64,000 nucleotides of DNA from an uncultured Christensenellaceae bacterium (GTDB lineage: Bacteria; Bacillota; Clostridia; Christensenellales; UBA3700): positions 121,199 through 185,198 of the forward strand of contig CALWRH010000001.1 in the NCBI GenBank assembly GCA_944383895.1. The letters run 5' to 3'. Made by a program: the position numbers and the translations under genes. A model generated the notes under the pieces. It was not told the DNA's origin. It made no database searches and was given only the letters and a program-made list of their open reading frames with translations. Numbering within the stretch: the first letter of the stretch is position 1; each line of letters begins with the position of its first letter. Below, one piece after another: positions 6,737-21,558 of this stretch.

Positions 6737-9133
6737 TTATCTCAGAACAGCGCCGAGCTGAGAAGTAAGTTTTGTCAGTACTCTCTCTACCTTCGCGCTG
6801 ACTTCTTCGTCAGTAAGCGTTCTGTCTGTCAGTCTGAATACCATATTGACCGCGACGCTCTTCTTGCCTGCGCCGATAGCATCGCTGCGATAAATATCGA
6901 ATATTCTCGCGCTCTTCAGCATGGATCCGCCTGCGCTCGTAACGCAAGAAAGCAGTTCTGCTGCGCTTACGTTTTCATCTACTGTTACCGCTATATCTCT
7001 CTCCATAGGAGGATATTTGCCTATCTCTTCAAACTTATATCCCTTTTTGCGGTATTTTTCTATGCTTGCGAGATCGATCTCTGCGATATACAGTCTGTCT
7101 TTTACGTCGAAAGACGCAGCGACTGACGGATGTACTTCTCCGATATAACCGATACTGAACTTGCCGATATAAAGCTCCGCGCTTCTGCCGCTGTGCAGAT
7201 ACGGACGCGAAGAACGTTTGTAGACTACGTTCAGTCCGTACTTGTAGGCAATGCGTCTGACTACCTCGTTTACCGTATAAAAATTTTCGTCCTTGCCGTA
7301 TGCGCCGATGACGAGGCGTTCTTTTTCTTCAGGCTGTTTCTCGAGAGGCAGACTCTCGGGAATATAGACGTTGGCAACTTCGAAGAAACGAGCTGCTTTG
7401 ATGTTTTTGAGAACGTTGGACGCAAGCACGTTCATCATGCTGTACGCAAGCGACGTTCTCATGACAGATACGTCTTCGCCGAGAGGATTGAGTATCGTCA
7501 CGCACTTTCTCGCGGGATCGTCTTCAGCAAGACGCAGAATATCGAAACTCTTAGGCGACGTGAAGGAGTATGTCAGAGTTTCGCTGTAGCCGTCGTTTAC
7601 GCATATATTCTTTACAGAATCGACTATCTTCTGATCCTCGGTCTTTCCTCCAACGGTCTGCTTGCCTTTGTCCATAAGCGTTTCGGTGATGTTGTCGTAT
7701 CCGTAAAGTCTGATGATCTCTTCCGCCAGATCGTTTGCGTTTTCTATATCGTCGCGGAAAAGCGGCGCCTTGCATACGAGAGTGTCGCCGTCAAGAACGG
7801 TATCTATCTGCAGACTGTTGAGTATGGATACCATTTTTTCGCGGGGAACGATTATGCCGAGTATGTCGTCGATTTTACTTGCCTCAACGCGCAACGTTTT
7901 TTGAGTGAGATCTGCATTGCAGCAGTCGACGACTCCTTTTGCGATCTTGCCGTATCCGTATTTATATACAAGCGTCAGAGCGCGCATGAGTCCGAGTCTC
8001 TGGCTTTCGAGATCTATGCCTCTTTCGTATCTGAAAGAAGAATCGGAGTGAAGATTGAGCGTTCTTGCTGTGCGGCGTATGTTATCGCGTGCGAATTTAG
8101 CACTCTCGAAGATAATGTCTTTGGTGTTTTCGTCAACGCAGCTGTTGTTGCCGCCCATTACGCCCGCGATAGCGCAAGGCTTGTCGCTGTCGCAAATAGC
8201 GAGCATTGTGTCGCTCAGCGTATACTCCTTGTTGTCGAGAGCAACGATCTTTTCTCCGTTTACCGCGCGTCTTGCAACGATAGAAGAATTTGCGATCTTG
8301 TCCGCGTCGAACGCGTGCATAGGCTGACCTATCTCGATAAGAACGTAGTTGGTTATATCTACAAAGTTGCTTATAGGTCTGAGCCCGACGCTCTTTAGTC
8401 TTTTCTGTATGATCTCTGCCGAAGGACATATCTTTATGTCGCGTACCGCGGCAGCCATATATCTCGGACAAAGGTCGGTGTCCTCGACTTTTACTTTCAC
8501 ATAATCGTTTACGTCTCCGGCCTCGCACTCAAAGCCGATTTCGGGCATTCTGAGCGGTTTTCCGAGCACAGTCGCAACTTCTCTCGCGATACCGAGAACG
8601 CTGTTGCAATCGCTTCTGTTAGCTGTTACGCCGATGTCGAGAATAACGTCGTCGTTGCCGAGTATCACGTTCATATCGGTGCCGAGCGGATATTTCTCTC
8701 CGTTCATTATAAGGATGCCGTAAACGCTTGCGCCCTTGTATTCAGCCTCGGTAAGCTTGAGTTCTTCGCCCGAGCAAAGCATACCGCACGATTCAACGCC
8801 GCGCAGCTTGCCTTTTTTAATTATCTGACCCGTGGGCAGCAGCGAATTGTCCATAGCAACGGGAACGAGATCGCCTTCTGCAACGTTCTGCGCGCCCGTA
8901 ACTATCTGCACGGTATCTTTCGCACCGACGTCGATGGCGCATATCTGCAGTTTGTCCGCATCGGGGTGTTTGGTAAGTTTTACGATCTTGCCGAGCACGA
9001 CGTTTTTCATTTCAGACGCCTTGTCGATGATCTCTTCCACCTCGAAACCTGCGGAAACGAGTTTATCCGCAAGGGATTGTACGTCTATATCTATATCAAC
9101 GAAATCTTTAAGCCAATTCAACGATACTTTCAT
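6737..9133 (-). CDS. pheT: phenylalanine--tRNA ligase beta subunit
   Basis: 798 aa. The N-terminus MKVSLNWLKDFVDI is the canonical PheT start, the B3/4, B5 and FDX-ACB regions are recognisable, and the gene follows pheS. Confidence 0.97.
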   Translation of the reverse strand: MKVSLNWLKDFVDIDIDVQSLADKLVSAGFEVEEIIDKASEMKNVVLGKIVKLTKHPDADKLQICAIDVGAKDTVQIVTGAQNVAEGDLVPVAMDNSLLPTGQIIKKGKLRGVESCGMLCSGEELKLTEAEYKGASVYGILIMNGEKYPLGTDMNVILGNDDVILDIGVTANRSDCNSVLGIAREVATVLGKPLRMPEIGFECEAGDVNDYVKVKVEDTDLCPRYMAAAVRDIKICPSAEIIQKRLKSVGLRPISNFVDITNYVLIEIGQPMHAFDADKIANSSIVARRAVNGEKIVALDNKEYTLSDTMLAICDSDKPCAIAGVMGGNNSCVDENTKDIIFESAKFARDNIRRTARTLNLHSDSSFRYERGIDLESQRLGLMRALTLVYKYGYGKIAKGVVDCCNADLTQKTLRVEASKIDDILGIIVPREKMVSILNSLQIDTVLDGDTLVCKAPLFRDDIENANDLAEEIIRLYGYDNITETLMDKGKQTVGGKTEDQKIVDSVKNICVNDGYSETLTYSFTSPKSFDILRLAEDDPARKCVTILNPLGEDVSVMRTSLAYSMMNVLASNVLKNIKAARFFEVANVYIPESLPLEKQPEEKERLVIGAYGKDENFYTVNEVVRRIAYKYGLNVVYKRSSRPYLHSGRSAELYIGKFSIGYIGEVHPSVAASFDVKDRLYIAEIDLASIEKYRKKGYKFEEIGKYPPMERDIAVTVDENVSAAELLSCVTSAGGSMLKSARIFDIYRSDAIGAGKKSVAVNMVFRLTDRTLTDEEVSAKVERVLTKLTSQLGAVLR

Positions 9134-16035: not shown

Positions 16036-16473
16036 ATGGATAGATTAAAATATTTTTCAGATTGTCTTAATGACACGCTTGTGGAACGTAATATAACAAT
16101 AAAAAATCTTTCCGCAAAAAGCGGAATCACCGATTCAAGAATTTACGATTTTTTGTCAGGCAAATGCGCTCCGTCTCTCACAAACGCTGTTAAACTCGCC
16201 AACGCTCTCAACTGCACTCTCGACTATTTATTCGGTTTTGAAGAAGTGTACACATTTTGTCAGAATTATACTTTGACATCAGATTGTTCAGAGAGATTGA
16301 GACAAGCAATTGCTACAAGCGGTAAAACTCGATATAAAATTTCAAAGGAAACAAAGGTATCTCAACAGCAACTGCATAACTGGTACAAAAATAAACAAAC
16401 TCCGACCTTGGTATCTCTTGTAAACTTTGCCGAATATTTCAACTGCTCTCTCGATTATCTGGTAGGCAAATAA
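16036..16473 (+). CDS. XRE-family transcriptional regulator with two tandem HTH domains
   Basis: 145 aa with two repeats of the Cro/C1-type HTH pattern (...L.AKSGI..S.IY.F..GK..P.....KLANALNCTLDYLFG and ...ISKETKVS...L..W...K..P.....NFAEYFNCSLDYLVG). Confidence 0.8.
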   Translation: MDRLKYFSDCLNDTLVERNITIKNLSAKSGITDSRIYDFLSGKCAPSLTNAVKLANALNCTLDYLFGFEEVYTFCQNYTLTSDCSERLRQAIATSGKTRYKISKETKVSQQQLHNWYKNKQTPTLVSLVNFAEYFNCSLDYLVGK

Positions 16474-16476
16474 AAT

Positions 16477-16501
16477 AAGCTCCGCATTGCGGAGCTTTCT
16501 T
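16477..16501 (+). terminator. terminator hairpin between the convergent XRE and acetyltransferase genes
   Basis: AAGCTCCGC-ATT-GCGGAGCTT followed by TCTTC, placed 4 nt after the XRE stop and 3 nt before the minus-strand gene's stop. Confidence 0.7.
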
Positions 16502-16503
16502 CA

Positions 16504-17097
16504 TTATTGCGGCTTGTAAAACGGATACGACGTTTTGTCTGCCTCTGTTATTTCTCGCATCACCCTGCAAGGCACGCCGACTGCCACAACGTTTGCGGGT
16601 ATAGCCTTTGTAACCACGCTGCCTGCTCCTATCACGGTATTGTCGCCTATCGTTACTCCGCCGAGGATTATGCTGCCCGTGCCTATCCATACGTTGTTGC
16701 CAACCGTTATGGATTTTGCTATCTCTACGCCTTTTTTCCTGAGCTCGGGATCAACAGGATGTTCTGCCGTCGTAAAGCTGCAATTGGGGCCAATAAATAC
16801 GTTGTCACCGAACTTTACGGGCAAACCGTCCTGTATAAGCATATTATGATTGGCATAAAAACTGTCGCCGACGTGAATATTGTAGCCGTAATCGCACCAG
16901 AACGGCGGCACGATTATCGCGTCTTTTCCCATTGTACCGAGAATATCTTTCAGCATTTTTGCCTGGGTTTCTCTGTCGTTGGGATTGAGTTTGTTATACT
17001 CAAAGCATTTGTCCTTGCATTTTCTTATCTGTTCTTCGTATGCGGGATTGTAGCACCCTTGAAAAAACATGTTTTCAGGTACGAAAGGTCTTTCCAT
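16504..17097 (-). CDS. sugar (maltose/galactoside-type) O-acetyltransferase, hexapeptide-repeat family
   Basis: Left-handed beta-helix hexapeptide repeats (NVWIGTGSIILGGVTIGDNTVIGAGSVV) and a Maa-like N-terminus. I prefer the start MERPF at 17097 over the ORF-track start at 17154. Confidence 0.85.
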   Translation of the reverse strand: MERPFVPENMFFQGCYNPAYEEQIRKCKDKCFEYNKLNPNDRETQAKMLKDILGTMGKDAIIVPPFWCDYGYNIHVGDSFYANHNMLIQDGLPVKFGDNVFIGPNCSFTTAEHPVDPELRKKGVEIAKSITVGNNVWIGTGSIILGGVTIGDNTVIGAGSVVTKAIPANVVAVGVPCRVMREITEADKTSYPFYKPQ

Positions 17098-17184
17098 GAT
17101 CTTACCTCTTATCTGTATTACTGATATTTTATCATAAAAAAGCAATCTTAACAATGCCTGTTTTATCAGAAAGAGTTTGAGTAA

Positions 17185-17247: not shown

Positions 17248-17520
17248 ATGCAAAACAACATTACAGACAAACTCAAAGCCTTGTCCGATCCAACGAGGCT
17301 TAAGATCGTAGAAATGCTCGGGAGCGGCAAACTGTGTGCATGCAAGATACTTGACAACTTTTCCATGACGCAACCCACATTATCTTACCACATGAAGATC
17401 TTAGCCGATTGCGGACTTGTAGACGTAGAAAAGGATTGGAAATGGTCGTATTATTCTCTGAATCACGATGCAATCGAAGAAATTATCGTGTTTTTCAATA
17501 CGTTAAAGGAGTATCTCTGA
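17248..17520 (+). CDS. ArsR/SmtB-family metalloregulator (winged HTH)
   Basis: LSDPTRLKIVEML..G.LCACKI......TQPTLSYHMKIL...GLV is the ArsR signature, including the CxC metal-site position. The ATG at 17248 has GAGGA upstream. The ORF-track ATG at 17230 has no SD and sits inside the predicted operator. Confidence 0.85.
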   Translation: MQNNITDKLKALSDPTRLKIVEMLGSGKLCACKILDNFSMTQPTLSYHMKILADCGLVDVEKDWKWSYYSLNHDAIEEIIVFFNTLKEYL

Positions 17521-17521
17521 T

Positions 17522-17815
17522 ATGATATGCGAAAACCAAAATAGCTGTATATGCCCTAAAACATCGTGCAAAAACCACGGACATTGTTGCGCATGCGTCA
17601 ACAAACATAAAAATACAGACAGTCTGCCATATTGTCTTTTCCCTGACAACGGTGGAGATAAAAGCAATCTGAATTGTTATTTTGTTACTTCGGTGGATAT
17701 TTGCTTAGCAGCTTTCTGCGCAAGTTGCAGGTTACTGCATGCCGCAAAAGCTCCCGACTTTCGTCGGAGAGCCGCACCACGCGCTAAAGCGCTGTGGTTG
17801 CGCTACTACATTTAA
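17522..17815 (+). CDS. small Cys-rich protein (CxC..C..HGHCCxC..C; possibly DUF6485-like) whose 3' end runs into the repeat array
   Basis: The ATG lies 1 nt after the arsR-family stop (TGAtATG). The first roughly 45 codons look like a real Cys/His-rich protein. From about 17658 the reading frame is made of repeat sequence, so the true C-terminus is uncertain. Confidence 0.55.
   Translation: MICENQNSCICPKTSCKNHGHCCACVNKHKNTDSLPYCLFPDNGGDKSNLNCYFVTSVDICLAAFCASCRLLHAAKAPDFRRRAAPRAKALWLRYYI
17692..17810 (+). repeat. unit A1
   Basis: GGTGGATATTTGCTTAGCAGCTTTCTGCGCAAGTTGCAGGTTACTGCATGCCGCAAAAGC, then CTCCCGAC-TTTC-GTCGGAGAG, then CGCACCACGCGC-TAAA-GCGCTGTGGTTGCG, then CTACTACA. Confidence 0.85.
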
Positions 17816-17827
17816 TATTGTGGCAGA

Positions 17828-17953
17828 GGTGGATATTTGCTTAGCGGCTTTCTGCGTAGGTTGCAAGTTACTGCATGCCGCAAAAGCAACCGCCTGCGGC
17901 GGATTGCCGAACCTGTTTCCGCTGCGCTACAACGGGTTCGCTTACCACCTCTG
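17828..17953 (+). repeat. unit B1 (closed by CAGAGGTGG...CCACCTCTG)
   Basis: It has the same 58-nt 5' module as A. The distinct 3' half is CAACCGCC-TGC-GGCGGATTG plus GCCGAACC..GGGTTCGC, and it ends TTACCACCTCTG. Confidence 0.85.
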
Positions 17954-17996
17954 ACCGACAAGAAAAAAGCACTCTGAATTGTTATTTTGTTACTTC

Positions 17997-18115
17997 GGTG
18001 GATATTTGCTTAGCAGCTTTCTGCGCAAGTTGCAGGTTACTGCATGCCGCAAAAGCTCCCGACTTTCGTCGGAGAGCCGCACCACGCGCTAAAGCGCTGT
18101 GGTTGCGCTACTACA
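17997..18115 (+). repeat. unit A2
   Basis: Identical to A1 by eye. Confidence 0.85.
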
Positions 18116-18132
18116 TTTAATATTGTGGCAGA

Positions 18133-18258
18133 GGTGGATATTTGCTTAGCGGCTCTCTGCGCAAGTTGCAGGTTACTGCATGCCGCAAAAGCAACCGCCT
18201 CCGGCGGATTGCCGAACCTGTTTCCGCTGCGCTGCAACGGGTTCGCTTACCACCTCTG
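18133..18258 (+). repeat. unit B2
   Basis: Differs from B1 at about 6 positions, for example the loops CTTT>CTCT and TGC>TCC. Confidence 0.85.
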
Positions 18259-18300
18259 ACCGACAAAAAAAAACACTCGGAATTATTATTTTGTTACTTC

Positions 18301-18431
18301 GGTGGATATTTGCTTAGCTGCTTTCTGCGCAGGTTGTAAGTTACTGCATGCCGCAAAAGCTCCCGACTTTCGTCGGAGAGCCGCACCACGCGCTAAAGCG
18401 CTGTGGTTGCGCTATCCACCTCTGTACACCA
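18301..18431 (+). repeat. unit A3 (closed copy ending in a tRNA-Tyr-like ...ATCCACCTCTGTACACCA)
   Basis: It has the A-type body, but its 3' end is GCGCTATCCACCTCTGTACACCA, which pairs with the 5' GGTGGATA and matches the tRNA-Tyr 3' end at 16 of 18 positions. Confidence 0.85.
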
Positions 18432-18465
18432 AAAACAGACGCCCCACTTGAGACGTCTGTTTTTT
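18431..18465. terminator. bidirectional rho-independent terminator shared by tRNA-Tyr (-) and the repeat array/arsR operon (+)
   Basis: A5-CAGACG-(12-nt loop)-CGTCTG-T6, with A-runs and T-runs on both sides. Confidence 0.8.
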
Positions 18466-18549
18466 GGTGGGCAGAGGTGGATTCGAACCACCGAAGACAG
18501 AGTCGGCAGATTTACAGTCTGCTCCCTTTGGCCGCTCGGGAATCTGCCC
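18465..18549 (-). tRNA. tRNA-Tyr (GTA), long variable arm, CCA encoded
   Basis: Hand-folded: acceptor GGGCAGA/TCTGCCC, anticodon arm GCAGA-CTGTAAA-TCTGC, T arm GGTGG-TTCGAAT-CCACC, 85 nt. Confidence 0.93.
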
Positions 18550-18570
18550 GTATTTATATAGTTTAATTGG

Positions 18571-18646
18571 TGGAGCTGGTGATCGGAATCGAACCAACAA
18601 CCTGCTGATTACAAATCAGCTGCTCTGCCAATTGAGCTACACCAGC
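18571..18646 (-). tRNA. tRNA-Thr (TGT), CCA encoded
   Basis: Acceptor GCTGGTG/CACCAGC, anticodon arm GCTGA-TTTGTAA-TCAGC, T loop TTCGATT, 76 nt. Confidence 0.9.
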
Positions 18647-18662
18647 AAGGTACCCTTTCGGG

Positions 18663-18738
18663 TGGTGCCTCGGGGCGGAATCGAACCACCGACACGGGGA
18701 TTTTCAGTCCCCTGCTCTACCGACTGAGCTACCGAGGC
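18663..18738 (-). tRNA. tRNA-Phe (GAA), CCA encoded
   Basis: GCCTCGGTAGCTCAGTCGGTAGAGC..., anticodon arm GGGGA-CTGAAAA-TCCCC, 76 nt. Confidence 0.93.
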
Positions 18739-18781
18739 ATAAATTTGGAGATTTATACAAATCTCCGAAACTTCTATAAAT

Positions 18782-18858
18782 TGGCGACTCGGAAGGGATT
18801 CGAACCCTCGACCTCTAGCGTGACAGGCTAGCGTTCTAACCAACTGAACTACCGAGCC
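18782..18858 (-). tRNA. tRNA-Asp (GTC), CCA encoded
   Basis: GGCTCGGTAGTTCAGTTGGTTAGAAC..., anticodon arm CTAGC-CTGTCAC-GCTAG, 77 nt. Confidence 0.93.
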
Positions 18859-18872
18859 AAATGTATTTTATG

Positions 18873-18949
18873 TGGTGGGCCATCAAGGACTCGAACCTTG
18901 GACCGACCGGTTATGAGCCGGTTGCTCTAACCAACTGAGCTAATGGCCC
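18873..18949 (-). tRNA. tRNA with CAT anticodon; body resembles Firmicute tRNA-Ile2 (lysidine) rather than initiator
   Basis: GGGCCATTAGCTCAGTTGGTTAGAGC, anticodon arm ACCGG-CTCATAA-CCGGT, T loop TTCGAGT. It lacks the three G-C pairs of an initiator anticodon stem. The choice between Ile2 and elongator Met cannot be settled by eye. Confidence 0.85.
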
Positions 18950-18969
18950 CCGGCTTAGCTTGTAATCGC

Positions 18970-19046
18970 TGGTCGGGGTGAAGAGATTCGAACTCCCGGC
19001 CCCATGGTCCCAAACCACGTGCGCTACCAAGCTGCGCTACACCCCG
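18970..19046 (-). tRNA. tRNA-Pro (TGG), CCA encoded
   Basis: CGGGGTGTAGCGCAGCTTGGTAGCGC..., anticodon arm CGTGG-TTTGGGA-CCATG, 77 nt. Confidence 0.93.
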
Positions 19047-19075
19047 AAATTCGTTTCCTTCCGTGCGACTGTTAC

Positions 19076-19105
19076 AATATACTACATCGTGTGGGCTATT
19101 GTCAA
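19076..19105 (-). promoter_or_regulatory. candidate sigma-A promoter of the tRNA operon (TTGACA-18-TATATT)
   Basis: The hexamers are read on the minus strand about 30 nt upstream of the tRNA-Pro 5' end. Confidence 0.55.
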
Positions 19106-19203: not shown

Positions 19204-21558
19204 TTATTCTTCTTTTCCTTCTTCTTCAGCCTTTTCTGCTGCCTTTGCCTTCTTGGAAGAAGTCTTCTTTGCAGGCTTTTCTTCAGCCTCTTCTTCTTTA
19301 GCAAAGTTCATAAGGTTGAACAGATCTCCGAGGGTCGCGCCGGTGCTCTCAGACTGCCAGGAAGTGGTCTCTTCTTCTTCAGCCTTCTTAGCTACCTTCT
19401 TGCGAGGAGCAGCGTTTACAGGCTTTTCAAACTTCTTAGCATTGCGGGACGCTCTCTTCTCTTTTGCCTCCTGATACTCTTCATCGGAAATTTCAACGTC
19501 GTCAGCCTTCTTCTCTTCTTCAGGGAGCAATGCCTTGATAGAAAGAGTGATCTTGTTGTCGTTGAACTTGATGACCTGAGCGGTAACCTCGTCGCCCTCT
19601 TTGTAAAGGTCTGCGGGGTTCTTGACATAGCTGCGAGAAAGCTCGGAAACAGGTACAAGACCGTCTACGTCTCTTTCGATGAGTACGAATATACCGTAGG
19701 GGAACACGCTTCTTACCTTGCCGGTAATGACGGAACCGACGGGATACTTCTCGGCAGCGAGTTCGTAAGGCTTTTTCTGGAGCTGCTTATATCCGAGAGA
19801 AACTCTGTTGGTCTCTCTGTTTGCCTTGAGGATAACGAAGTCGTAAGACTTGCCTATCTCGAGTACGTCGCTGGGATGAGCAACGCTGTAGTGAGAAAGA
19901 TCTGCGATGTGAGCCAGGCAATCGAAACCGTATACGCTTACGAAAGCACCGAAATCGGTCAGTCTTTTAACTTTGCCGTTTACGATAGATCCTACGGTAA
20001 GTTTGCTCCAGAGCTCGTCTTCTTTCTTAGCCTTTTCTTCTTCGAGGATAACTCTCTGAGACGCTACGATAGAACGGCCTCTCTTGAGGGTGATCTCTTT
20101 GGGCTGTTCAGCGACTGCCTCAACGGGAGCCTCGACTGCCTCGGTATTTACTTCTGCAACTTCGCCTTCTGCGGGAGCTGCAACGTTTTCGTCCTTTACT
20201 TCTTCAGCCTTGACAGTTTTCTTGGGCTCGATAGCTCTGAGTCTGAGCGTCTTGCCGACGTACTTCTCGAGATCCGTAACGTAGCCGATCCTGATCTGGG
20301 ATGCGGGAACGAAGATCTTGTAGCTGCCGAGTTTGCCTTCGAGTCCGCCTTTTACTACTCTGTCGATCGTAACTTTGAACTCTCCGCCTCTGATAGCTTC
20401 TTCAGCCTCTTTGTCTTCCTGATTGCGCTTATCAACAGCTTTCTTGGAGAACGCGATGCTTTCATTGCCTTTCTTGTTCTGCTTCTCGATAACCATAGCG
20501 GCTATCTTGTCGCCCGCTTTGTAATTTGCAGGCACATAATCTATACCGTCCAGCTCGGCGTCGGCTTTGTCGATAAAACCGTCTTTCTTGCCGCCGAAAT
20601 TGATAATAATGCCTTCATCGTTCGCGCTGATAACTGTGCACTCTCTGAAAATCTTTCCTGCTTTGATTTCAGTGTTCTTCTTGTCAGACGCTGCTAACAA
20701 TTTACCGAATTCGGTATCCTTGTTGGTGTTTTGAGTGTCGCTCATTTGTTTTACTACCTCCTCAATCAACTCTTTCGGAGTTGACGCCCCGGCTGTTATA
20801 CCGAGGATTTTATAATTATGTTTATTTTCTATCACCGGCTTTAGGTCGGCAATATTTTCAATAAAAAAAGTGTTCTTGCAATTCTTTGCGGAAATCTCGT
20901 AAAGTTTAGTCGTATTTGAGCTCGTTCTGCTGCCTATAACCAGCATGCCGTCGCACTTTTTACTGAGTTCTTCCGTCTCGGATTGCCTATCTGTTGTAGT
21001 ATAGCAAATCGTCCTGAATTTTTCAACTGTTTTACAGCGGTTTTCAATACTTTTTAATAAAATATCGTACTTGTTTTCGCTGTACGTCGTCTGCACTACA
21101 ACGCATAACTTTTCGTGTTCGGGAAGTGCTTTTACGTCCTCTTCTCCGTCGACGATATACGCGCTGTTTCCGCACCAACCGTTTATTCCGACTACCTCGG
21201 GATGGTCTTTAGCTCCTATAATAACGATTTTGTATCCAGCGAGATAATATTTGCGCACTAAGTTGTGAATTTTTTTAACGAAAGGACAAGTCGCGTCGAT
21301 ATAAGGAATATTTTTTTCTTTAAGCGAATTTTCAACAGATTCGGGTACGCCGTGAGAACGGATTATGACCGTTCCGCCGTTGTATTCTTCGGGACTTTCA
21401 ATCACCCCGATCCCCTTTGCCTTGAGTCTGGCGTTTACATAATCGTTGTGGATCAGTTCTCCCAAAGTGCTGACCTTGCCTTCAGTGCTCAGCGCGGTAT
21501 TGACTGCGTTTCTGACACCGAAACAAAATCCTGCGTTTTTCGCAACGAAAATTCTCAT
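19204..21558 (-). CDS. ispH: bifunctional 4-hydroxy-3-methylbut-2-enyl diphosphate reductase (IspH/LytB) / ribosomal protein S1
   Basis: 784 aa. The N-terminus MRIFVAKNAGFCFGVRNAV is IspH. Four S1 (OB) repeats follow (GKVKRLTDFGAFV, GKVRSVFPYGIFV...), then a K/E/A-rich tail. This fusion is common in Clostridia. Confidence 0.93.
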   Translation of the reverse strand: MRIFVAKNAGFCFGVRNAVNTALSTEGKVSTLGELIHNDYVNARLKAKGIGVIESPEEYNGGTVIIRSHGVPESVENSLKEKNIPYIDATCPFVKKIHNLVRKYYLAGYKIVIIGAKDHPEVVGINGWCGNSAYIVDGEEDVKALPEHEKLCVVVQTTYSENKYDILLKSIENRCKTVEKFRTICYTTTDRQSETEELSKKCDGMLVIGSRTSSNTTKLYEISAKNCKNTFFIENIADLKPVIENKHNYKILGITAGASTPKELIEEVVKQMSDTQNTNKDTEFGKLLAASDKKNTEIKAGKIFRECTVISANDEGIIINFGGKKDGFIDKADAELDGIDYVPANYKAGDKIAAMVIEKQNKKGNESIAFSKKAVDKRNQEDKEAEEAIRGGEFKVTIDRVVKGGLEGKLGSYKIFVPASQIRIGYVTDLEKYVGKTLRLRAIEPKKTVKAEEVKDENVAAPAEGEVAEVNTEAVEAPVEAVAEQPKEITLKRGRSIVASQRVILEEEKAKKEDELWSKLTVGSIVNGKVKRLTDFGAFVSVYGFDCLAHIADLSHYSVAHPSDVLEIGKSYDFVILKANRETNRVSLGYKQLQKKPYELAAEKYPVGSVITGKVRSVFPYGIFVLIERDVDGLVPVSELSRSYVKNPADLYKEGDEVTAQVIKFNDNKITLSIKALLPEEEKKADDVEISDEEYQEAKEKRASRNAKKFEKPVNAAPRKKVAKKAEEEETTSWQSESTGATLGDLFNLMNFAKEEEAEEKPAKKTSSKKAKAAEKAEEEGKEE

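Follow-up and report, generated by a model that had tools for sequence, protein, structure and literature searches.

Hairpin-rich tandem units beside a tRNA-Tyr gene in Clostridia resemble the tRNA-linked repeats of Escherichia coli

Introduction

What kind of element is a tandem array of hairpin-dense units that stands beside a cluster of tRNA genes, and what ties it to that place? The question is raised by a 64-kb stretch of contig CALWRH010000001.1 from an uncultured Christensenellaceae bacterium (the window, meaning the whole stretch of DNA that was analyzed), in which positions 17656-18431 are taken up by five such units between a small cysteine-rich open reading frame (ORF) and the gene for tRNA-Tyr. 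An earlier reading of this DNA (the original prediction) had proposed an undescribed family of structured RNA, placed in the 3' untranslated region (UTR) of an arsR-family operon. [quoted passage not shown] We give a probability of about 0.6 to the reading that these are lineage-specific TLRs anchored to the tRNA-Tyr gene.

TLRs are known from Escherichia coli. The prototype, RtT (Rfam RF00391), is a 178-bp unit present in 3.14 repeats after tyrT/tyrV (Egan & Landy 1978; Rudd 1999; reviewed in PMC8144298). The E. coli complement amounts to 22 units at ten loci, with one to five units at each, and the hallmark of the class is that 18-19 bp match perfectly the 3' terminus of whichever tRNA or 5S gene lies upstream (PMC8144298). 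The tRNA-linked members have no known function; three TLRs that follow 5S rRNA owe their expression to transcription past the T1 terminator, are processed, and bind Hfq and CsrA (PMC8144298). The elements rrA, rrB, and rrF are TLRs located between T1 and T2 of rrnA, rrnB, and rrnD, and they carry GGA motifs to which CsrA and Hfq bind (PMC8144298).

Results

Tandem Repeats Finder places a 305-bp period at 17656-18414, with 2.5 copies, 96% matches, and a score of 1406. The array as a whole consists of five units in the order A-B-A-B-A, as the original prediction had it, and a covariance model built from nine units matches the window exactly five times, while also recovering all units in the other species described below. 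The opening motif GGTGGATATTTGCTTAGC recurs exactly at 17692, 17828, 17997, 18133, and 18301, and GTTACTGCATGCCGCAAAAGC likewise has five exact occurrences; by chance, approximately none would be expected of either. Alignment of the five units bears out the proposed layout of a common opening module of approximately 58 nt and two type-specific halves. It also upholds the substitutions reported between B1 and B2, which differ at 6-7 positions, CTTT>CTCT and TGC>TCC among them.

To place the array, we compared it with loci from the same species and from relatives. Contigs L001, L006, and L007 encode an ArsR protein identical to that of the window and thus represent the window species. L011 is Ca. 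Ornithoclostridium faecavium and L022 an uncultured "Christensenella sp."; these two, with one locus each, were the only true homologues in a pattern scan of 185,579 species genomes. L034 and L040, whose IspH proteins are 83% and 66% identical to that of the window, have arrays at the matching site and were reached via homologues of an IspH-S1 protein. This is a fusion of IspH (LytB) with ribosomal-protein-S1 domains (784 aa, 19204-21558, minus strand) encoded directly upstream of the tRNA operon and common to all relatives examined; the arrangement is ordinary for the group, and it served as a synteny anchor.

The link to tRNA-Tyr begins with position. Six tRNA genes occupy 18465-19046 on the minus strand (Tyr, Thr, Phe, Asp, Met, and Pro), and the Pro-Met-Asp-Phe-Thr-Tyr operon that they form extends over 18465..19105 of that strand, with a promoter-like TTGACA-18-TATATT at 19105-19076. 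Its last gene is tRNA-Tyr (GTA; 18465..18549, minus strand; ARAGORN, Rfam), and the 3' end of this gene is the source of the unit ends. Only 34 nt separate that 3' end from the start of the array, with one terminator hairpin in between, which we read from the sequence as a bidirectional intrinsic terminator with A-run and T-run flanks (18436..18462, strand unassigned). In L022, L011, L034, and L040, too, the unit family directly adjoins the tRNA-Tyr terminator, and the same six-tRNA operon is found in L034, L040, and L050.

The last 18 nt of tRNA-Tyr, ATCCACCTCTGCCCACCA, comprise two T-loop bases, the 3' strand of the T-stem, the 3' strand of the acceptor stem, the discriminator A, and CCA. 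Copies of the 18-mer of the species' own tRNA-Tyr, with 0-4 mismatches, are present in every species that has the array; most are inverted and some are direct, the direct copies with 1-2 mismatches being found in L001, L007, and L040. In the window, an inverted copy that matches at 16 of 18 positions lies at 18414..18431 on the plus strand, and this copy, the terminator, and the tRNA 3' end itself (18465-18482, minus strand) together make one long palindrome; its counterpart in L040 has arms of approximately 30 nt. The 9-mer CCACCTCTG occurs six times in the window, where 0.09 occurrences would be expected, and all six are at the array locus. The copies also follow the tRNA where it has changed: the acceptor stem of L040 differs from that of the window species (GGGAAGA/TCTTCCC vs GGGCAGA/TCTGCCC), and the L040 variant recurs in each of the four copies in its units. 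The sequence shared by units and tRNA is confined to these 3'-terminal 18 nt, plus CTTCGGTGG in A-type units. ARAGORN and the Rfam tRNA model find the six true tRNAs only and no cloverleaf in the units. [quoted passage not shown]

The five units, given here without a strand, differ in how completely they are closed. Unit A3 (18292..18430; covariance-model match of 146.5 bits) is the sole complete A-type unit, with the closing helix GGTGGATA/TATCCACC, and on the plus strand it terminates in ATCCACCTCTGTACACCA. Units B2 (18124..18264; 89.3 bits) and B1 (17819..17959; 95.3 bits) are closed by CAGAGGTGG/CCACCTCTG, which in B2 forms a helix of 9 bp made of T-stem and acceptor-stem sequence of tRNA-Tyr; CCACCTCTG stands at 18129 (minus) and 18250 (plus) in B2, and at 17824 (minus) and 17945 (plus) in B1. 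One closing arm is absent from A2 (18003..18110; 106.5 bits, over model positions 17-124 only), which is fused to B2, and from A1 (17698..17805; 106.5 bits), which lies within the 3' end of the Cys-rich ORF. The closing helix GGTGG(ATA)...(TA)CCACC that had been ascribed to every unit holds for A3, B1, and B2 and is missing from A1 and A2. The spacers between units (17656..17691, with equivalents at 17960-17996 and 18265-18300) contain remnants of A-runs and T-runs and look like decayed copies of the tRNA-Tyr terminator; the first of them forms the junction with the Cys-rich ORF. In L040 and L034, whole or half terminator hairpins are still present in the spacers, and therefore the period that is repeated consists of the tRNA 3' end, the terminator, and the body. 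The terminator between array and tRNA-Tyr exists in at least two unrelated versions within one species, CAGACG...CGTCTG in the window (18436-18462) and TGACACC...GGTGTCA in L001 (7020-7055) and L007. Half of the latter sits in an inter-unit spacer of L034 (8150-8240), and terminators appear, from these sequences, to be shuffled together with the units.

Each unit of approximately 125 nt has three conserved helices, namely the Y hairpin, the X hairpin, and a TTTKC/GMAAA helix around a variable insert. Its closing helix is built from the 18 nt at the 3' end of tRNA-Tyr, present as a copy, as the complement, or as both, and the terminator-like spacer follows the unit. The modules come in two interchangeable types, X_A (CTCCGAC-GAAA-GTCGGGAG) or X_B (AATCCGCC-GCA-GGCGGTT), and likewise Y_A or Y_B. 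Read on the tRNA strand, each period runs from a terminator-like T-run through the antisense 18-mer and the body to ATCCACC; beyond this, B-type and L040-type units continue with a copied acceptor strand in sense orientation and A-type units with GAAGTA. The order of the helices and their orientation relative to the tRNA are invariant across all species. Two further sequence features did not hold up: a preference for GNRA/GNA loops on the tRNA strand (GAAA, GCAA, GCA, GTA, GGA) is broken by GACG and GATA in L040, and a T-arm-like match of 8 nt in the Y hairpin (GTGGTTCG) is no more than chance would give.

Protein coding can be rejected for the array, in agreement with the original prediction: its ORFs (of 81 aa or less) are copies of one another without a credible Pfam match, and they are not preserved among the repeats because X_A and X_B differ in length by one base. 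No known RNA family accounts for the units either. At the gathering score Rfam reports six tRNAs and nothing else, and up to E=10 it finds nothing relevant in 17450-18600; the covariance model of RtT (RF00391, gathering score 45 bits) is silent on the same interval, even up to E=10. The claim of an undescribed family thus stands insofar as no Rfam model matches, and falls insofar as the kind of element has been known since 1978 as the E. coli TLRs, with RtT (RF00391) as its Rfam entry (PMC8144298).

Several observations point to constraint on the helices. On both strands, the units fold better than shuffled sequences (z = -3.2 to -4.7). Across species, in a unit alignment of related sequences that was itself fitted to the structure, 88.7% of pair cells are standard; shuffling gives 82.9%, with none of 500 shuffles as high as the real alignment, and sliding the partners gives 33-48%. 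At nine pairs, both partners have changed. Pairing reaches 96-98% in helices X, Y, and TTTKC/GMAAA (M1), and RNAalifold agrees. Between the window clade and L040, columns of the unit body that form stems are 80-88% identical and unpaired columns 44-51%, with neighboring inter-tRNA spacers at approximately 61%; of the 3-5 pairs that have changed, 3-4 are still paired. At the level of sequence comparison, this demonstrates constraint on the stems. The conserved fold had been correctly anticipated as far as these hairpins and their compensatory changes across species are concerned. It does not extend to the two small hairpins inside the shared module, whose pairing register is conserved only in the window species and L034. 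The C-G versus A-T compensatory pair that had been proposed for the A half against the B half cannot be demonstrated, since the two do not align there; real compensatory changes are found only between species. Whole-unit identity is 83.5% to L034 and 63-69% to L040, in parallel with flanking DNA and ispH, and therefore the array is old and vertically inherited, not recently acquired.

The array is confined to one place in the genome and is variable within it. The number of units per locus is five in the window, four in L001, two in L007, three in L034, five to six in L022, two to three in L011, and three in L040. Strains that share an identical ArsR have five, four, or two units, with hybrid X/Y combinations (one hybrid is among the four units of L001) and differing terminators. 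The covariance model finds no further copy in the window or in approximately 110 kb of the other loci; together with the genome scan, this supports a single locus and not dispersed repeats, in line with the original prediction, a result that rests on metagenome-assembled genomes, with a complete genome of the window species not included. Scans of JGI metagenomes with X-hairpin and tRNA-end-palindrome patterns gave no matches, and neither did phage, plasmid, and IMG/VR collections. At L050 (IspH 52% identical), the six-tRNA operon is followed by a terminator and then a gene, without an array.

On the far side of the array, by comparison, the neighbors vary: arsR in the window, a gene for a TIR-domain NTPase in L034, and FtsX/ABC genes in L040. 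In L022, L011, L034, and L040, the adjacent far-side gene is oriented away from the array, and no convincing promoter toward the array was found from the far side in L022, L034, and L040. With other genes in this position in L034, L022, L011, and L040, and tRNA-Tyr constant, the assignment to the 3' UTR of an arsR operon was not sustained.

The arsR connection has its own history. The Cys-rich ORF (17522..17815, plus strand), which has a weak DUF6485 match, was thought to stop before the array; it runs into unit A1, from which its last ~45 codons are read, and is a chimera. In L006 (6293-6493), the same ORF has an intact end, ...SNLNYFNKLKKRFQSEDDKQ, followed by a DUF5714 gene, a minus-strand gene for a membrane protein, and only then the repeats. 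The last two genes are missing from the window, and the arrangement there is therefore a deletion; at its junction is a near-identity of 14 nt, AAAAGCA(A/C)TCTGAA, common to the ORF and the repeat spacer. In the window strain only, the deletion would have put the opposite strand of the array into the 3' end of the arsR/Cys-rich-ORF transcript. The plus strand of the array is thus presumably also transcribed in this strain, as the tail of that message. Neither the chimeric Cys-rich ORF nor the short repeat ORFs should be annotated as genes.

Beyond the array, the conserved order is a variable islet, a gene for a maa-like hexapeptide acetyltransferase, and an HTH_3 regulator. We compared this arrangement in the window (16036-17154), L022 (1613-2743), L011 (2684-3767), and L034 (8566-12132). 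The islet holds arsR and the Cys-rich ORF in the window, to which L006 adds DUF5714; it is empty in L022 and contains an uncharacterized ORF of 147 aa and an ORF of 236 aa with a signal-peptide-like N-terminus in L011. In L034, the gene adjoining the array encodes a TIR-domain NTPase of 1188 aa and resembles a defense gene. Genes seem to be gained and lost here, as in a small hotspot.

A few other contigs deserve mention. Most ispH-S1 metagenome contigs (L033, L035-L039, L041-L046, L048, and L052-L054) break within the tRNA cluster or at the array, L035 has a small misassembled duplication within tRNA-Pro/Met, and the locus systematically fails short-read assembly. At L047 (IspH 56% identical; 6890-6973), the tRNA-Tyr terminator is followed by a direct copy of 14 nt from the variable-arm/T-stem segment (CTCTGTCTACGATG), then by unrelated sequence and the end of the contig; going by this copy, the site may hold a direct-orientation tRNA-linked unit with a different body. 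Genomes of Chitinophagales/Sphingobacteriales (L012, L019, L020, L023, and L025) match a loose pattern, with a span of 60 nt in four of them and 50 nt in L023. The same 60-nt span in four genomes suggests a conserved gene segment there, not chance, and by BLAST these matches are unrelated to the array.

For a direct comparison with E. coli, the tyrT-tyrV locus of K-12 contains four RtT units that score 133-137 bits each (Rfam). The tyrT units run from GGGGAAGGAT through a hairpin body of approximately 100 nt to ATCCTTCCCCCACCACCA, and they fold with a closing helix of 10-12 bp around internal hairpins, leaving the tail CACCACCA free.

Discussion

The array is anchored to tRNA-Tyr, its unit ends track the local tRNA, it turns over rapidly within one species, and it is not dispersed. 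Like the E. coli TLRs, it consists of tandem units of approximately 125-180 nt, with 1-5 per locus, directly after a tRNA-Tyr gene, in which the last 18 nt of the adjacent tRNA and/or an upstream complement close a hairpin-rich body. It also shares with rrA, rrB, and rrF the position of a unit past the first terminator of a stable-RNA operon and the 18-bp copy of the 3' end of the upstream gene; on the E. coli side, this goes along with expression by read-through and subsequent processing. However, rrA, rrB, and rrF are single units after 5S rRNA, and no such GGA pattern or chaperone context is evident here. Other differences from the E. coli TLRs are that a full intrinsic terminator precedes the array and copies of the terminator lie within the repeat period, that two module types (X_A/X_B and Y_A/Y_B) are shuffled, and that the host belongs to the Clostridia (Christensenellales-like) and not to the Enterobacteria. 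We infer that the array originated by duplication, mostly inverted, of the tRNA-Tyr 3' end and its terminator. Afterwards it would have been expanded, contracted, and reshuffled, likely as copies of the tRNA end, and likewise the shared modules, underwent unequal crossover and gene conversion among themselves; the unit ends would thereby stay in step with the local tRNA.

Some of our observations weigh against identifying the array with TLRs or against a role for its units as RNA. Most of the tRNA-end copies are inverted here, whereas the E. coli copies are all direct and perfect, and the direct copies in the window (in B1 and B2) are exact for just 13 nt. There is no detectable homology to RtT: the RtT model is silent on the window and the array model is silent on E. 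coli, which makes the two the same kind of element and not the same family. The pairing statistics draw on five species, four of them closely related, besides the fitting of their alignment to the structure. Folding energy prefers each strand in 8 of 16 units, and counts of G.U versus A.C speak for the tRNA strand in the helices of the body (6:1) but not in the one that closes the unit (3:5). Finally, the intrinsic terminator between tRNA-Tyr and the array is strong, so that co-transcription needs read-through, as happens at rrnB T1 (PMC8144298).

The array could instead be a self-perpetuating by-product at the level of DNA without an RNA role, serving at most as back-up terminators or insulators between the highly transcribed tRNA operon and its neighbors. 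Template switching would have extended the terminator palindrome and copied the complement of the tRNA 3' end, slippage or unequal crossover would have multiplied the product, and quasipalindrome correction would keep its hairpins perfect. The long palindrome in which the tRNA 3' end, the terminator, and an inverted copy are joined is in keeping with this route, as are the highly variable unit number and module make-up within one species, an overall unit divergence equal to that of neutral spacers, the lack of a preferred strand, and the lack of a promoter into the array in L022, L034, and L040. In addition, on the tRNA strand the X hairpin together with the TTGCTTTTGC that comes after it has a terminator-like score. 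However, stems are clearly more conserved than loops and flanking spacers where IspH stands at 66%, the order of the three helices and their orientation relative to the tRNA are fixed in all species, and RtT and rrA/B/F of E. coli are transcribed and processed (PMC8144298). We consider an array without any RNA role unlikely, although it is the strongest competitor to anchored TLRs.

An independent structured non-coding RNA or a cis-regulatory 3'-UTR element that the arsR/Cys-rich-ORF operon would express from the plus strand, with its end at the terminator, is far less probable. The plus strand must be transcribed in the window strain, as the stop codon of the ORF is inside A1; in relatives, most units end on that strand with a sense 18-mer including ACCA, which is a TLR-like orientation, and some wobble pairs favor it, such as GACGG/CCACC in L022. 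Yet the arsR link is species-specific and the product of a deletion, with DUF5714 and membrane-protein genes in between in L006, and in L022, L011, L034, and L040 the far-side gene points away and no consensus promoter faces the array. Classical sites of integration are the 3' ends of tRNA genes. Remnants of mobile DNA, either att scars of an integrase at the tRNA gene or a miniature inverted-repeat transposable element (MITE) that has terminal inverted repeats and uses the 3' end of tRNA-Tyr as its target, would explain why the unit ends are inverted repeats identical to that 3' end, and a variable gene islet, including the TIR-domain NTPase in L034, does adjoin the array. This is the most improbable of the explanations weighed here: no integrase or transposase was found at any locus, target-site duplications were not seen, phage, plasmid, and IMG/VR collections held nothing similar, and a single locus per genome diverges along with its host. 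Resemblance to REP, BIME, and MITE elements is limited to being hairpin-dense, mosaic, sometimes tandem, and intergenic near terminators. Those elements are dispersed in tens to hundreds of copies, whereas the array keeps to a single locus in each genome and is linked to one particular tRNA, and on this single-locus evidence, from the genome scan and the covariance model, dispersed REP/MITE repeats are rejected. A reading of the antisense 18-mer as the site where a primer for reverse transcription would bind finds no support, and among the loci examined no gene for a reverse transcriptase was noted.

If the array is indeed made of TLRs anchored to tRNA-Tyr, the units might be expressed by read-through of the tRNA-operon terminator, as RtT and rrA/B/F are in E. 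coli. Since no convincing promoter was found facing the array in L022, L034, and L040, such read-through is the only transcription route available in every species; we rate expression of this kind as tentative, at somewhat below even odds. The closing helix resembles a minihelix of acceptor stem and T-arm, and in some species (L040-type units) it reaches 12 bp and is followed by ACCA, so that tRNA-processing RNases may release RNAs of approximately 125-140 nt. Because of this mimicry of the tRNA-Tyr acceptor and T-arm minihelix, it could be proposed that tRNA-processing enzymes excise the units and that these act in trans as structured RNAs, for instance as decoys or sponges for factors that recognize the 3' end of tRNA-Tyr. 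We regard this last step as speculative and rather improbable.

Discussion of TLRs in the searchable literature is confined to enterobacteria, and the TLRs of E. coli have gone unexplained since 1978. The array described here would be a second, unrelated family of TLR design, found in Clostridia, with a hairpin body that is closed by the neighboring tRNA's own 3' end. A second, unrelated family with the same design argues that a general mechanism repeatedly produces it, or that the design is repeatedly useful. The locus also accounts for the way in which assemblies of these gut bacteria break after the tRNA cluster. The array family provides a comparative handle on what TLRs do, and if the reading as trans-acting RNAs were true, TLRs would be a widespread, independently evolved class of RNA born from tRNA operons and not an enterobacterial oddity.

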